Shown piece after piece: positions 15,052-18,092 of a DNA stretch of 18,304 nucleotides. The DNA is taken from the IMG/VR virus record IMGVR_UViG_2529292908_000003; one strand, 5' to 3'. The stretch is from a virus. Its lineage: Duplodnaviria; Heunggongvirae; Uroviricota; Caudoviricetes. Numbering within the stretch: position 1 is the first letter of the stretch; every line of letters begins with the position of its first letter. Position numbers and translations under genes: made by a program. A model generated the notes under the pieces. It searched no databases, was not told the origin of the DNA, and was given only the letters and a program-made list of their open reading frames with translations.

Positions 15052-15095
15052 ATAGCCCGTCATTTCTGCGCTCACACGTCCCAACATTGAAAAAC

Positions 15096-15129
15096 ATGCA
15101 AAGCTTTGTAAGCCGATGCAAAGCTTTGT
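15096..15129. promoter_or_regulatory. Two copies of a 14-bp repeat ATGCAAAGCTTTGT, each containing the perfect 10-bp palindrome CAAAGCTTTG, spaced 20 bp centre to centre; operator-like
   Basis: Palindromes at 15099-15108 and 15119-15128, read directly; two-helical-turn spacing is typical of a dimeric repressor operator pair. Confidence 0.4.
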
Positions 15130-15215
15130 GTGTCTCACTTTTGTCCCAATACCAATCCGAATCCACCCTTTGTCATCATTGAGAAATGGCAAGGAAGAAA
15201 AGGATGTTACTGCAC

Positions 15216-15248
15216 GATTTGACAAATCCGCCAGAGCTATCGCATACT
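15216..15248 (+). promoter_or_regulatory. Promoter-like module A: palindrome GATTTGACAAATC overlapping a consensus -35 TTGACA (15219-15224), 18-bp spacer, -10-like CATACT
   Basis: 16-bp GATTTGACAAATCCGC is identical to 16628-16643; consensus -35; weak -10. Confidence 0.4.
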
Positions 15249-15266
15249 GACCGCACTACAACGTCA

Positions 15267-15302
15267 GCGGTCAACCGCACCCGATAGCTTTGCGGCTTTT
15301 TT
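15267..15302 (+). terminator. Attenuator/terminator-like element A: GCGG-tcaa-CCGC-(12 nt)-GCGG-c-UUUUUU
   Basis: Three short complementary segments allowing alternative pairings, followed by T6; same layout as 16692-16726. Confidence 0.4.
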
Positions 15303-15407
15303 ATGCCTGTTTACAGGTATCGCCATATCAATGGCGGGTCGAGAGAGCCTAATACAATACCCTTTCGGGAAATACGCTCCGCCGTCTGACGCGGTAGTTG
15401 AAGCCCG

Positions 15408-15416
15408 CCCCCCCCC
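15408..15416. repeat. Homopolymeric C9 tract about 40 bp upstream of the antirepressor-like gene A start
   Basis: Nine consecutive C at 15408-15416 (preceded by GCCCG), within the 5' leader of gene A. Confidence 0.9.
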
Positions 15417-15458
15417 ACTAAGGTGGCAGTCAATACTAAAACGTCAGGAGTCATAATT

Positions 15459-15743
15459 ATGACTAATCAACTCATTCCCGTTTTCGATGGAACCATCAAC
15501 AACGAACCAGTTTTACTTTGCAATGCTCGCAATCTGCACGCTTTTCTTGGTATTGGTAAAATGTTTGCTCACTGGATCAAGGACAGGCTGGGTGAATATG
15601 GATTCGTTGAAAATCAAGATTTTGTGATTGCTTGCCAAAATTGGCAAGCAAAAGGTAGAGGCGGTCACAACCGCAAGGAATACCACCTCACCCTCGACAC
15701 AGCCAAAGAGCTTGCGATGGTTGACGACTGCGTCCAATACTGA
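15459..15743 (+). CDS. Antirepressor-like protein, AntA-type N-terminal domain only (truncated paralog of the gene at 15993)
   Basis: AGGAG SD 8 nt before ATG 15459; product MTNQLIPVFDGTINNEPVLLCNARNLHAFLG...HLTLDTAKELAMV is about 60 percent identical to the N-terminus of the next gene, then diverges and stops; 44 bp (15681-15724) are identical to 16209-16252. Confidence 0.6.
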   Translation: MTNQLIPVFDGTINNEPVLLCNARNLHAFLGIGKMFAHWIKDRLGEYGFVENQDFVIACQNWQAKGRGGHNRKEYHLTLDTAKELAMVDDCVQY

Positions 15744-15790
15744 CTATACTCCGCGCCGAGGCCTCGAAAACCTCCCAAAAGCGGATTAAA

Positions 15791-15816
15791 CCAACCCCGT
15801 CAGTGTTGGATTTTTT
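15791..15816 (+). terminator. Putative intrinsic terminator after gene A (stem CCAAC/GTTGG, loop CCCGTCAGT, then A-UUUUUU)
   Basis: Hairpin plus T6, 48 bp after the gene A stop; loop sequence CCCGTCAGT recurs at 16704-16712. Confidence 0.45.
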
Positions 15817-15992
15817 ATGCCTGTTATTCAGTGATAGCACAGTGTGCGGTCACATCCCCGATCAATGTCGGGAGGGCGACGAATACAACACCCGCAAGGG
15901 GAATAAGTCCGCGGTATCTTTTGGGCCGTTTCGAGCCTCCCGGCACCACATCTTGTGGTGGCATTTCTCGAAAAAAGCCAAAGGAGGTCATC

Positions 15993-16622
15993 ATGACCAC
16001 TCAACTCATCCCTGTGTTTGAAGGTACAATCTCAAATGAACCTACGCTTCTGGTGAACGCGCGTGATTTGCATGGATTTTTAGAGGTAGGTAAAGATTTT
16101 TCTAACTGGATACGGGCCAGGCTAAACGAGTATGGATTCGTAGAAAATTTAGACTACATTCTATTTTCGCCAAATTTGGCGAAAACTCCAGGCCGCCGCC
16201 GCAAGGATTACCACCTCACCCTCGACACAGCCAAAGAGCTTGCGATGGTTGAACGTAACGAAAAAGGCCGCCAGATACGCCGCTACTTCATCGAGTGCGA
16301 AAAGAAACTTCGCAACATTCAGCCAGTACAAGCAGAACCACAGCCGCAATTCACAGCCGAGGAAATCATCCTCCTTTGCTACATGCAGCTCTGGATGGAA
16401 AAAGCCCAGGACATCAGCAAACACCTGTATCCCATTATGAAAGAGCTGAACTCCTCATACACGAACAAGCTGTATGACATTGCGTTTGAGACCATCTACA
16501 TGGTGACGAAGAACAGAGACGCGCTACTGAGGGAGGTAACACGTCTCGACATGTCAAGTTCCGTTATCCAGCGGGCCATGCCAATGCTGAAAAGCCTGCG
16601 GGCAAGACAATTCGAGTTTTAA
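15993..16622 (+). CDS. Phage antirepressor-like protein (AntA-type N-terminal domain plus a C-terminal domain shared with the gene at 16877)
   Basis: AGGAGG SD 5 nt before ATG 15993; MTTQLIPVFEGTISNEPTLLVNARDLHGFLEVGKDFSNWIRARLNEYGFVE...HLTLDTAKELAMVERNEKGRQIRRYFIE, and a C-terminus PQFTAEEIILLCYMQLWMEKAQ...LRARQFEF shared with the next gene. The track's 54-codon upstream extension has no RBS. Confidence 0.75.
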   Translation: MTTQLIPVFEGTISNEPTLLVNARDLHGFLEVGKDFSNWIRARLNEYGFVENLDYILFSPNLAKTPGRRRKDYHLTLDTAKELAMVERNEKGRQIRRYFIECEKKLRNIQPVQAEPQPQFTAEEIILLCYMQLWMEKAQDISKHLYPIMKELNSSYTNKLYDIAFETIYMVTKNRDALLREVTRLDMSSSVIQRAMPMLKSLRARQFEF

Positions 16623-16627
16623 GGCCA

Positions 16628-16660
16628 GATTTGACAAATCCGCATTAACGGGGATATATT
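16628..16660 (+). promoter_or_regulatory. Promoter-like module C: palindrome GATTTGACAAATC with -35 TTGACA (16631-16636), 18-bp spacer, -10 TATATT (16655-16660)
   Basis: Consensus -35, 5 of 6 -10; 16-bp identity with module A; begins 6 bp after the gene B stop. Confidence 0.5.
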
Positions 16661-16691
16661 CCGCTCCATGGTGCTGAACACACCTTCGAAA

Positions 16692-16726
16692 GCGGAAACC
16701 GCGCCCGTCAGTCATGCGGATTTTTT
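16692..16726 (+). terminator. Attenuator/terminator-like element C: GCGG-aaa-CCGC-(13 nt, containing CCCGTCAGT)-GCGG-a-UUUUUU
   Basis: Same three-segment layout as 15267-15302 despite different intervening sequence; T6 at 16721-16726. Confidence 0.4.
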
Positions 16727-16876
16727 ATGTCCATTTTTCAGATATGGTCGGGTAGCGCGTATACCGAAAAACAGCCGTAAGGCTAAGGATGCGGGCCGAA
16801 CTTTCGACGGTGTTCAAGTACCCGACCGCCCTGCTGAACACGGGGTGATCTGAACGAATCGAAAGGACATAAAACT

Positions 16877-17509
16877 ATGAGCACTCAACTTGTATTCCAC
16901 AATGTTCAATTCCAGACCGTTCAACGAGATGGTCTACTGTGGTTGTCTGCCCCCCAAATAGCCAGCGCGTTACAATATGCAGATCAAAGCTCGGTAACAC
17001 GCATCTATGCCCGTCACGCAGATGAATTCACAAACGGTATGACAGCCTCGGTCAAATTGACCGATCCTAAAGGGGACAAGCAAGAGACTCGCATCTTCTC
17101 ATTACGCGGCGCTCACCTAATAGCGATGTTTGCTCGAACTCCAATAGCAAAAGAGTTTCGTCGCTGGGTATTGGATATTCTGGACCGTGAAGCTGAAAAA
17201 AGCGCTATACCGCCACAACCTCATATTCAGCCTCAATTCACAGCAGAAGACATCATCCTGCTCTGCTACGTTCAACTCTGGATGGAAAAAGCACAACAAC
17301 TCAGTAAACAGCTATACCCCGTCATGAGAGAACTGAACTCTGATTACTATGGAAAGCTGTTTGATCTGGCCTACGAAACTCGTCATATAACCAACCGGAC
17401 TCGCGACACATTGCTCCGCGAAGCAGCAAAACTTGATCCCGCCAACTATACGGTGCACAGGGCCAGAAGTATGCTGGCGCAACTAAGAGCAAGACAATTT
17501 GAATTCTGA
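16877..17509 (+). CDS. Phage antirepressor-like protein (Bro-N-type N-terminal domain plus the C-terminal domain shared with the gene at 15993)
   Basis: AAGGA SD; N-terminus MSTQLVFHNVQFQTVQRDGLLWLSAPQIASALQY (Bro-N-like); C-terminus PQFTAEDIILLCYVQLWMEKAQ...LRARQFEF about 65 percent identical to the preceding gene. Confidence 0.75.
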   Translation: MSTQLVFHNVQFQTVQRDGLLWLSAPQIASALQYADQSSVTRIYARHADEFTNGMTASVKLTDPKGDKQETRIFSLRGAHLIAMFARTPIAKEFRRWVLDILDREAEKSAIPPQPHIQPQFTAEDIILLCYVQLWMEKAQQLSKQLYPVMRELNSDYYGKLFDLAYETRHITNRTRDTLLREAAKLDPANYTVHRARSMLAQLRARQFEF

Positions 17510-17556: not shown

Positions 17557-17778
17557 ATGGCAGATATCATCGACAATGCCGCTGAAATCGAAGAATTGCA
17601 GCGCAATCTCTCCCTGCAAAAATACAAATCCGATAGTAATGCCCCATCTGCTACTCATTGTTGCGAGTGTGGCGATCCGATAGATGAGCGGCGACGCCTG
17701 GCTGTTCGTGGATGCCGAGCTTGCGCCAGTTGCCAGCAGGATATTGAACTTATCAACAAACAGAGAGGTGTGAAGTGA
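17557..17778 (+). CDS. TraR/DksA-family C4 zinc-finger protein (phage TraR-like transcription modulator)
   Basis: AAGGAAAGGA SD; 73 aa with CxxC-x17-CxxC (CECGDPIDERRRLAVRGCRACASCQ), typical of TraR-like proteins of conjugative elements and lambdoid phages. Confidence 0.75.
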   Translation: MADIIDNAAEIEELQRNLSLQKYKSDSNAPSATHCCECGDPIDERRRLAVRGCRACASCQQDIELINKQRGVK

Positions 17779-18092
17779 ACATCAACACCACGATAACGAT
17801 CGATACAGCCCTGAACACCGGCCTGGCGCTCCTTGGTTATTTCTACATCATGTTCTGCAGCGGACGATGGCTGTCACTGTTGTTCATGAAAAAATGGAAT
17901 AAACGCCGTAAGCAGGAGCAACGCCAGAAGGCAATGGATGCATTTTTCGAAGCCTTCGGGATTGACAGCATGGAACCAGGGGATCCAGCTCGCGCAATCA
18001 GCAGAGGGGGCGTAGTAATCCTTGTATATCGGAGTGAAGAGAAAAATGACGATCACAAAACAACGTGTAGAAAAAATCATATATCGCCATGA
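17775..18092 (+). CDS. Hypothetical small protein with one predicted TM segment; GTG start overlaps the TraR-like stop (GTGA)
   Basis: ORF start and stop overlap suggests translational coupling; hydrophobic stretch GLALLGYFYIMFCSGRWLSLLF followed by a basic region; no family recognised. Confidence 0.35.
   Translation: MNINTTITIDTALNTGLALLGYFYIMFCSGRWLSLLFMKKWNKRRKQEQRQKAMDAFFEAFGIDSMEPGDPARAISRGGVVILVYRSEEKNDDHKTTCRKNHISP

Follow-up and report, generated by a model that had tools for sequence, protein, structure and literature searches.

A nine-cytosine tract in the tail of a probable C4-like antisense RNA module upstream of a prophage antirepressor gene

The run of nine cytosines (C9) located at positions 15408-15416, + strand, of the window (the whole stretch of 18,304 nucleotides that was analysed) is probably a homopolymer of recent origin and prone to slippage, which belongs to the 3' tail of an antisense RNA module that resembles C4 and would control a prophage antirepressor gene. 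The RNA of this module (module A) is a copy of sRNA-Xcc1, and modules B and C follow it with their own copies. By analogy with the immI region of phages P1 and P7, arranged as a1/b1 - C4 - a2/b2 - icd/ant, the Xcc1 RNA would be cut out of the leader and accumulate, the 5' cut being made probably by RNase P at AU^G by means of the acceptor-like stem and the RCC tail. Once released, the RNA would prevent ribosomes from binding to the mRNA of its own antirepressor, whether in cis or in trans, and as the loop sequence would set the specificity, modules A, B and C would constitute separate channels. The small RNA of module A probably silences the adjoining antirepressor gene, as C4 does in the phage P1 model, while a site duplicated upstream of the RNA may act as a decoy or as an activator. 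The tract itself is probably, according to the folding predictions, a near-neutral mutational hotspot in the tail of the RNA.

Module A and the location of the tract

The leader of module A starts at a sigma70-like promoter (TTGACA, an 18-nt spacer and CATACT, with 10/12 matches; 15219-15248, + strand). Next comes a promoter-proximal hairpin, CCGC-ACUACAACGUCA-GCGG (15251-15270, +), which contains an upstream copy, CGUCAG (15262-15267), of the target located near the SD and is analogous to a1/b1 of phage P1 immI. The following hairpin, CCGCA...UGCGG and then CUUUUUU (15275-15302, +), is terminator-like and, from the alignment, homologous to the isrK-like terminator of the phage P1 immI leader. 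A consensus terminator scan did not call the 15275-15302 hairpin, the loop of which is longer than 8 nt, and the short leaders of the modules, folded as single sequences, do so no better than shuffles; hence the name of terminator is based on homology and on the U-run, and not on energy.

The RNA element itself, a three-way-junction structure of the sRNA-Xcc1 type, occupies positions 15333-15417 (+) and matches the Rfam model RF02221 over its full length (1-87) with 49.9 bits and an E value of 2e-7. The alignment to the model contains all the helices of the P1/P2/P3 three-way junction, with two non-canonical P1 pairs. Stem P1 is formed by GGCGGG (15333-15338) and CCCGCC (15404-15409), the P3 loop determinant is UCUGACG (15385-15391) and the junction segment J3/1 is GUUGAA (15397-15402). 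The conserved AAUACAAYACCC-GNRA-GGGRAAU core of sRNA-Xcc1 is also present, as UAAUACAAUACCCUUUCGGGAAAU. The closing stem has only 6 bp and is absent from the thermodynamic MFE, and plain MFE folding of the module A leader departs from the Rfam fold; it served here only for comparisons between alleles. The element falls below the RF02221 gathering score of 53 bits and surfaced at a relaxed threshold. When the alleles of the tract described below were scored, CCACCCC reached 53.0 bits, equal to the cutoff, C7 reached 51.5, and C6, C8, C9 and C10 gave 49.5-50.0; the module A copy is thus missed at the curated Rfam cutoff because the A-to-C change and the extra cytosines lower its score.

Downstream of stem P1, a small hairpin (P4) is formed by CCAC (15415-15418) and GUGG (15423-15426). 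It is weak in module A (-5.5 kcal/mol, z -0.3) and stronger in modules B (-11.9, z -2.5) and C (-10.6, z -1.7). The downstream target extends from 15430 to 15450 (+) and includes UCAAUAC (15430-15436), complementary to J3/1, and CGUCAGG (15442-15448), complementary to the P3 loop and overlapping the module A SD, AGGAG (15446-15450). The bipartite RNAduplex between the RNA and this target was calculated at -14.5 kcal/mol, with a weak preference for the cognate combination, since the non-cognate ones gave -13.4 and -13.7 kcal/mol. Gene A (15459-15743, +) is a 94-aa ORF with an AntA domain (Pfam, E 4e-25) and without the P22_AR_C part. It is marked as a pseudogene by PGAP in FORC_029, and phage POCJ13 retains this short ORF; as the gene is truncated and annotated in this way, selection on the module A copy may be relaxed.

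The tract lies within this arrangement in the context ...GUAGUUGAAGCCCG-CCCCCCCCC-ACUAAGGUGGCAG..., and comprises the last 2 nt of the 3' arm of stem P1, the position of the 'NCC' tail, and the linker between that tail and the small hairpin. The sequence-only reading had placed nine cytosines there, about 40 bp before gene A and downstream of a promoter-like module, and its description was exact: the gene A ATG (15459-15461) is found 42 nt past the end of the tract, and the tract starts about 160 nt downstream of the promoter. Its allusion to the leader of an antirepressor-like gene stands in that the tract precedes an AntA gene, but the region is a structured sRNA-Xcc1 element and not a plain leader. 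The tract had also been called unusual, with reason, as no other run of C or G in the window reaches seven, the second in length being a C6 at 16950. A run of nine C or G is expected 0.06 times per shuffled window and was present in 8 of 200 dinucleotide-preserving shuffles, so that C9 is unusual for the window, yet not wildly so.

Alleles of the tract and the effect of its length

To find relatives of the locus, IMG/VR and metagenomes were scanned with patterns and E. coli genomes were searched with BLAST. Among these relatives the sequence at the tract site is mostly CCACCCC, which is the family consensus, the Rfam tail being 'aCCC'. One exact 170-nt haplotype, defined by identity over 90 nt upstream and 45 nt downstream of the tract, was recovered with the tract as its sole variable: CCACCCC four times, C6 once, C7 six times, C8 six times, C9 four times and C10 once. 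A run of six or more cytosines at this site was found in none of the 115 other sRNA-Xcc1 family members among the matches listed. The simplest history suggested by the alleles would be a single A-to-C change by which CC and CCCC were joined into C7, with later gains and losses of C by slippage giving C6 to C10; on this comparison of sequences, C9 is a recent derived mutation and a lineage-specific mutational hotspot. The expectation that the tract is prone to slippage is thus borne out by the range from C6 to C10 on an identical haplotype, although some of the differences could be homopolymer sequencing errors.

The same 191-nt stretch containing C9 is present with 100% identity in at least 17 complete E. 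coli genomes, mostly of the O104:H4 outbreak lineage and including 2009EL-2050 and FORC_029, as well as in one metagenome contig (L018). Tract length compared across strains, as had been proposed, ranges from C6 to C10 on one haplotype, and a uniform C9 is shared by 17 or more assemblies from the O104:H4 clade and its relatives.

The sequence-only reading had further suggested that the tract could change the length or structure of the leader in a phase-variable manner. In its full form this explanation holds that slippage alters leader processing, structure or spacing and so switches antirepressor expression and, with it, the propensity of the prophage to be induced. It would be favoured by the C6-C10 series on an otherwise identical haplotype, by the proximity of the tract to a functionally plausible NCC tail and to the linker towards P4, by the cost of about 2.6 kcal/mol that the A-to-C change is predicted to impose on the tail hairpin and, conceivably, by an influence of a C-rich unstructured stretch on Rho loading. 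A resemblance also exists with the poly-C and poly-G contingency loci of Neisseria, Haemophilus, Bordetella and Campylobacter, which share with the tract a C/G homopolymer of nine or more and length polymorphism among close strains. The tract differs from them in that it is located outside any promoter spacer or reading frame, is not kept as a repeat in homologues and has no predicted effect on expression. Partition-function folding of CCACCCC and of C7 to C12 left the predicted unpaired state of the SD unchanged, at 0.09 when the RNA was folded from the Xcc1 5' end and at 0.34-0.36 from the transcription start, and the predicted folding energy shifted by about 0.1 kcal/mol per added C. The bases that come first after the stem remain N-C-C at any tract length and the complementary sites are untouched; since extra cytosines just lengthen the linker between the stem with its NCC tail and the weak CCAC/GUGG hairpin, tract length is probably near neutral. 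The absence of a homopolymer from all 115 other family members listed argues against a designed feature, C9 is uniform in at least 17 assemblies, and the gene downstream in the window is a truncated AntA ORF. A switch of this kind thus appears unlikely, and phase-variable regulation by tract length is not supported by the predictions. The tract may still influence RNase P kinetics, 3'-end formation or Rho loading, effects that lie outside the reach of thermodynamic prediction.

Two specific forms of the switch were considered and rejected. Phase variation of a promoter spacer would need a -35/-10 pair flanking the tract, and none does so, TTGAAG at 15398-15403 being without a usable -10 at 16-18 nt. 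A frameshift or upstream-ORF effect finds just two ORFs over the tract, of 41 and 47 aa, located inside the structured RNA and without an SD. The ATG at 15331, on the 5' border of stem P1, opens a frame shared with gene A in the CCACCCC, C7 and C10 alleles; in C6 and C9 this frame ends 2 nt ahead of the gene A ATG, and in C8 it ends early. The dependence of this frame on the tract was judged coincidental because the ATG lacks an SD and belongs to the P1 stem of a covarying RNA.

Three cassettes, the sRNA-Xcc1 family and the immI region of phage P1

Module B (15721-16622, +) is composed of a promoter (15721-15750), a decoy leader (CUCGAAAACCUCCCAAAAG), a terminator-like hairpin, an Xcc1 RNA (15867-15952; 73.4 bits with RF02221), a P4 hairpin ACCACA/UGUGGU, the target CUCGAA...CCAAAGGAGG and an Ant gene (15993-16622). 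Module C (16631-17509, +) likewise contains a promoter (16631-16660), a decoy leader (CUGAAC...UUCGAAAG), a terminator-like hairpin, an Xcc1 RNA (16746-16835; 67.7 bits with RF02221), P4, the target CUGAAC...UCGAAAGGA and a Bro-N/P22_AR_C gene (16877-17509). The Xcc1 copies upstream of genes B and C are both above the 53-bit Rfam cutoff. The three modules align with one another and keep the same order of promoter, decoy hairpin, terminator-like hairpin with U6, Xcc1 RNA, P4, SD and gene; the domains encoded downstream are AntA in A, AntA plus P22_AR_C in B, and Bro-N plus P22_AR_C in C.

In each cassette the P3 apical loop and J3/1 are complementary to two sites situated upstream of the SD or overlapping it, and the same target sites are duplicated in the promoter-proximal leader, so that the putative decoys are a copy of the SD-proximal sequence without the SD. 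The upstream decoy and the SD-proximal target are, respectively, ACUACAACGUCAGCGG and ACUAAAACGUCAGGAG in module A, CUCGAAAACCUCCCAAAAGCGG and CUCGAAAAAAGCCAAAGGAGG in module B, and CUGAACACACCUUCGAAAGCGG and CUGAACGAAUCGAAAGGAC in module C. When the RNA determinants were paired with all the sites in 3x3 RNAduplex matrices, the cognate combination was the best in every row and column. The cognate duplexes with the downstream targets had energies of -14.5 (A), -19.8 (B) and -17.8 kcal/mol (C), and those with the upstream leaders of -23.9 (A), -22.7 (B) and -27.3 kcal/mol (C).

To follow this architecture through the family, one genome per species was searched for degenerate matches to the conserved core AATACAAYACCCNNNNGGGRAAT, which gave at least 120 loci. 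Among the matches listed, these belong to Xanthomonadaceae, Pasteurellaceae, Neisseriaceae, Enterobacterales, Desulfovibrionaceae and Alphaproteobacteria, and to single genomes of Bacteroidota, Acidobacteriota and Verrucomicrobiota. An ORF is present downstream of stem P1 in 114 of 116 usable copies among these matches, at a median distance of 50 nt (interquartile range 44-55), and is preceded by a strong SD in 105 of the 114. P4 usually begins 0-3 nt past stem P1, with the 'tail' as its 5' arm, and has a stem of at least 7 bp in 48 of 112 copies listed, versus 8 of 112 after shuffling.

The complementarity between the RNA and its flanking sites is a property of the family, as the comparison of cognate with non-cognate pairs revealed. 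For the P3 loop against the SD region, scores of 7 or more were obtained in 36% of the cognate and 2.3% of the non-cognate pairs (Mann-Whitney p 9e-15, about 112 members among the matches listed), and the loop/SD duplex occupies roughly positions -16 to -9 relative to the start codon. A site between P4 and the SD shows complementarity to J3/1 (p 1.4e-10 for cognate versus non-cognate, among the matches listed), and for the P3 loop a second complementary site, some 65-75 nt upstream of stem P1, was detected in 83% of cognate versus 15% of non-cognate pairs (p 1e-41, same matches). These tests are conservative, since related sequences are included among the non-cognate controls. A run of five or more T is found within 75 nt upstream of stem P1, between the upstream site and P1, in 91 of 109 members listed. 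Examples of loop/SD pairs are GGUCUCGUUGA/UCAACGAGGUC in locus L053, UCUGACG/CGUCAGG in window module A and UCUUUUGG/CCAAAGGA in window module B, and UUCACUUUG/CAAAGUGGA and UUCUGAUUG/CAAUCAGGA in the two tandem copies of locus L132. A compensatory change was found in E. coli HY220605, in which the loop CUAUACG is matched by the upstream site CGUAUAG, versus CUGACG and CGUCAG in the window, the two sequences being about 95% identical over 205 nt. From these alignments, both target sites covary with the P3 loop across about 112 members from many phyla among the matches listed.

The genes that follow the RNA encode antirepressor-type domains (Bro-N in 10 cases, Phage_pRha (Rha) in 9, AntA in 7, KilA-N in 3, ORF6N in 3 and P22_AR_N in 2, among the matches listed) and SymE toxins (11), many others having no Pfam match. 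They agree with publications in which Xcc1 precedes symE or an ORF6N gene, the former described in Xanthomonas (bioRxiv 10.1101/2025.06.18.660453). Among Xanthomonadaceae, loci such as L036, L038 and L047 are devoid of the AUG/RCC signature described below, and have a conserved UGCCUGC before stem P1 and a long GC-rich P4; in this subgroup the upstream loop-complementary site is very clear, the loop/SD match is weak and many downstream ORFs have no Pfam domain. Tandem Xcc1 cassettes with differing loop and target sequences occur at L132:5418 and L132:7264, and an island of Xylella Temecula1 has been described with five tandem cassettes spaced about 380 nt apart, Xcc1, isrK and C4 being adjacent in Xylella (PMC12189769). 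The L132 and Xylella tandem cassettes suggest that arrays of separate RNA channels are common.

The arrangement resembles that of phage P1 immI, which in the GenBank record has the order promoter P1c4, putative a1, b1, C4 RNA, a2, b2, icd and ant. The C4 RNA is annotated there as 77 nt ending in ...CCUGCC-ACC, and a2/b2 as 'repression of icd ant translation'. Rfam models found on the phage P1 stretch C4 (RF01695), c4-a1b1 (RF03163) and, between them, an isrK-like fold with a terminator, the latter at 35 bits and below its cutoff. Both systems share the succession of promoter, upstream target copies, terminator-like hairpin, three-way-junction RNA, downstream targets and antirepressor gene, as well as a GC closing stem with an (A)CC tail and a distal target placed over the RBS. 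In window modules A, B and C, as in immI, two RNA determinants are complementary to two sites before the start, the junction determinant to the proximal site and the hairpin-loop determinant to a site at about -17 to -10 of the start, and the target sites are duplicated upstream of the RNA. The likeness reaches the sequence at short flanking segments: the ends of the C4 consensus, AuGGcgGg...cCcgCCaCC, nearly match AUGGCGGG ... CCCGCC[A]CC of module A, and the phage P1 and window leaders align as ...GCGG-N-CAACCGCA...UUGCGG-N-UUUUUU-AUG... There are also differences, as the interior of Xcc1 consists of P2, with the AAUACAA/GNRA internal loop, and P3, and not of the C4 fold; the Xcc1 cassettes have the extra hairpin P4 after the stem; and the window has three tandem modules and no icd-like ORF between RNA and ant. 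The Rfam models of C4, c4-a1b1 and isrK had no match in window positions 15150-17000 at E values up to 10, in a search that was positive in phage P1 and HY220605; the relation between the window and C4 is therefore one of architecture and short flanking similarity.

The C4 RNA is reportedly matured by RNase P, as Hartmann et al. are said to have found in 1995, and this enzyme prefers U(-1), G(+1) and a 3' RCC(A). In 34 of 116 copies among the matches listed, including modules A and B, stem P1 has an AUG at its 5' edge; the G of this AUG pairs with a C in 28 of the 34 and the tail is N-C-C in 26 of them, mostly GCC or ACC. The AUG-edge G-C pair and the N-C-C tail would fit a maturation of the Xcc1 RNA by RNase P similar to that of C4.

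Partial likeness exists also with IsrK. In both cases a promoter-proximal short RNA extends to a terminator, and read-through leads into an antirepressor operon with an occluded RBS. An isrK-like fold is moreover present in the phage P1 immI leader, which aligns with the window leaders, but the isrK model itself has no match in the window. That the short leader RNA of the window might be a trans activator or a decoy is speculation. In Salmonella Gifsy-1, the isrK-orf45-anrP region gives rise to a short terminated RNA and to a long, translationally inactive antirepressor mRNA (PMC12197685).

A different explanation of the conserved structure would be that Xcc1 is a purely cis-acting structured 5' UTR, that is, a translational operator resembling a riboswitch or a thermosensor, which is never released and in which the tract is a neutral spacer. 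The constant location of the element about 50 nt upstream of a start with a strong SD would agree with it, as would the long-range helix that occludes the SD in the thermodynamic MFE of the module A leader and the conservation across phyla of the internal-loop sequence AAUACAAYACCC-N4-GGGRAAU. This possibility seems nevertheless quite unlikely. The covarying duplicate of the site upstream, together with a promoter-terminator leader homologous to that of phage P1 immI, is a feature of the C4 antisense design; there are orphan copies without a following ORF, as in HY220605; and tandem arrays exist in Xylella (PMC12189769). Moreover, the RNA of an sRNA-Xcc1 locus is abundant and poorly covered by ribosomes in the EHEC strain EDL933 (PMC5331693). 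The HY220605 copy (NZ_CM132922.1) forms part of a leader (L163:344-725) in which both RNA classes are in tandem, with an Xcc1 of 60 bits that lacks a downstream target of its own, an isrK-like/c4-a1b1-like leader, a genuine C4 (70.6 bits) and then the Ant gene.

Sequencing error, family function and genomic setting

Homopolymers of 8-10 are error-prone on several sequencing platforms, and the sequence-only reading had also regarded the tract as a possible sequencing or assembly hotspot. Were the tract, or the length differences among strains, due to such errors, the discrepancy between the near-identical genomes FORC_029 (C9) and FORC_069 (C8) would be explained, and several of the metagenome contigs have a coverage of only about 2-4x. 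However, C9 recurs in one metagenome contig and in no fewer than 17 genomes that were finished independently, and consequently is no artefact of one single assembly; lengths from C6 to C10 appear in three separate collections; and the A-to-C change that created the run is a base change and not an error of length. Errors of this type are thus a very unlikely source of the tract or of its variation.

It is highly improbable that the length of the tract tunes the maturation of the module A antisense RNA (by way of RNase P acting on the NCC tail, of 3'-end formation or of Rho entry), with slippage generating subpopulations that differ in antirepressor output, although if this were true it would lead to heritable heterogeneity in the spontaneous induction of the ynfG-integrated prophage in O104:H4-type E. 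coli. Much more likely than such tuning is that the whole sRNA-Xcc1 family constitutes a so far unrecognised class of programmable antisense RNAs which, in the manner of C4, regulate antirepressors and SymE toxins across phyla. The family (RF02221) was described from an integron cassette of Xanthomonas campestris as a trans-acting, stand-alone sRNA controlled by HrpG/HrpX, with its target unknown in the literature. Modules B and C are clear members of it and module A matches the full model at 49.9 bits, but here the RNA appears at the centre of a larger cassette encoded in cis, in which the upstream and SD-proximal sites covary with it. A link of sRNA-Xcc1 to a C4-like mechanism was not found in the searchable literature. 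Until now an orphan, 'virulence-associated' sRNA family, sRNA-Xcc1 would thus appear as the core of a C4/immI-type antisense cassette, and such cassettes lie before genes for antirepressors or SymE toxins in many phyla, where they belong to prophages, integrons and islands, including Stx-converting phages and the O104:H4 lineage. If confirmed, the proposed mechanism would provide a means of keeping several prophage antirepressors silent through separate RNA channels, and the function of an Rfam family would be re-assigned. The homopolymer itself is minor in this respect, its practical effect being to push the element just under the Rfam cutoff, so that routine annotation misses the module A copy.

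The window corresponds to E. coli chromosome (ynfE and ynfF, 808 aa each) that continues into a prophage with ynfG as its insertion site. Over 3.4 kb the window is 99.97% identical to FORC_029, which has the same three antirepressor genes, and the region is common to Stx-converting and Shigella phages, such as POCJ13, with 84-92% identity. In strain 2011C-3493 (O104:H4) the same C9 leader precedes a single fused Ant of 211 aa. A 54-nt repeat, 98% identical, is located inside genes A and B (15671-15724 and 16199-16252), and this repeat, together with the presence of one fused Ant in 2011C-3493 versus three modules in the window, suggests recombination between module genes. The three modules are followed, at positions 17557-18092, by a zinc-finger gene of the TraR/DksA type and a DUF4752 gene, an arrangement also present in O104:H4 and FORC_029. 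A tandem direct repeat, ATGCAAAGCTTTGT(AAGCCG)ATGCAAAGCTTTGT, is found at 15094-15133, just past the truncated ynfG remnant near the junction of chromosome and prophage; it is possibly att-related, and was flagged as a hairpin by the terminator scan. A weak match to ohsC_RNA, a type I antitoxin RNA, was obtained in a relative (L163:136-211; 42 bits versus a cutoff of 50). It is equivalent to about 15125-15200 of the window and adjoins the upstream side of the module A promoter.
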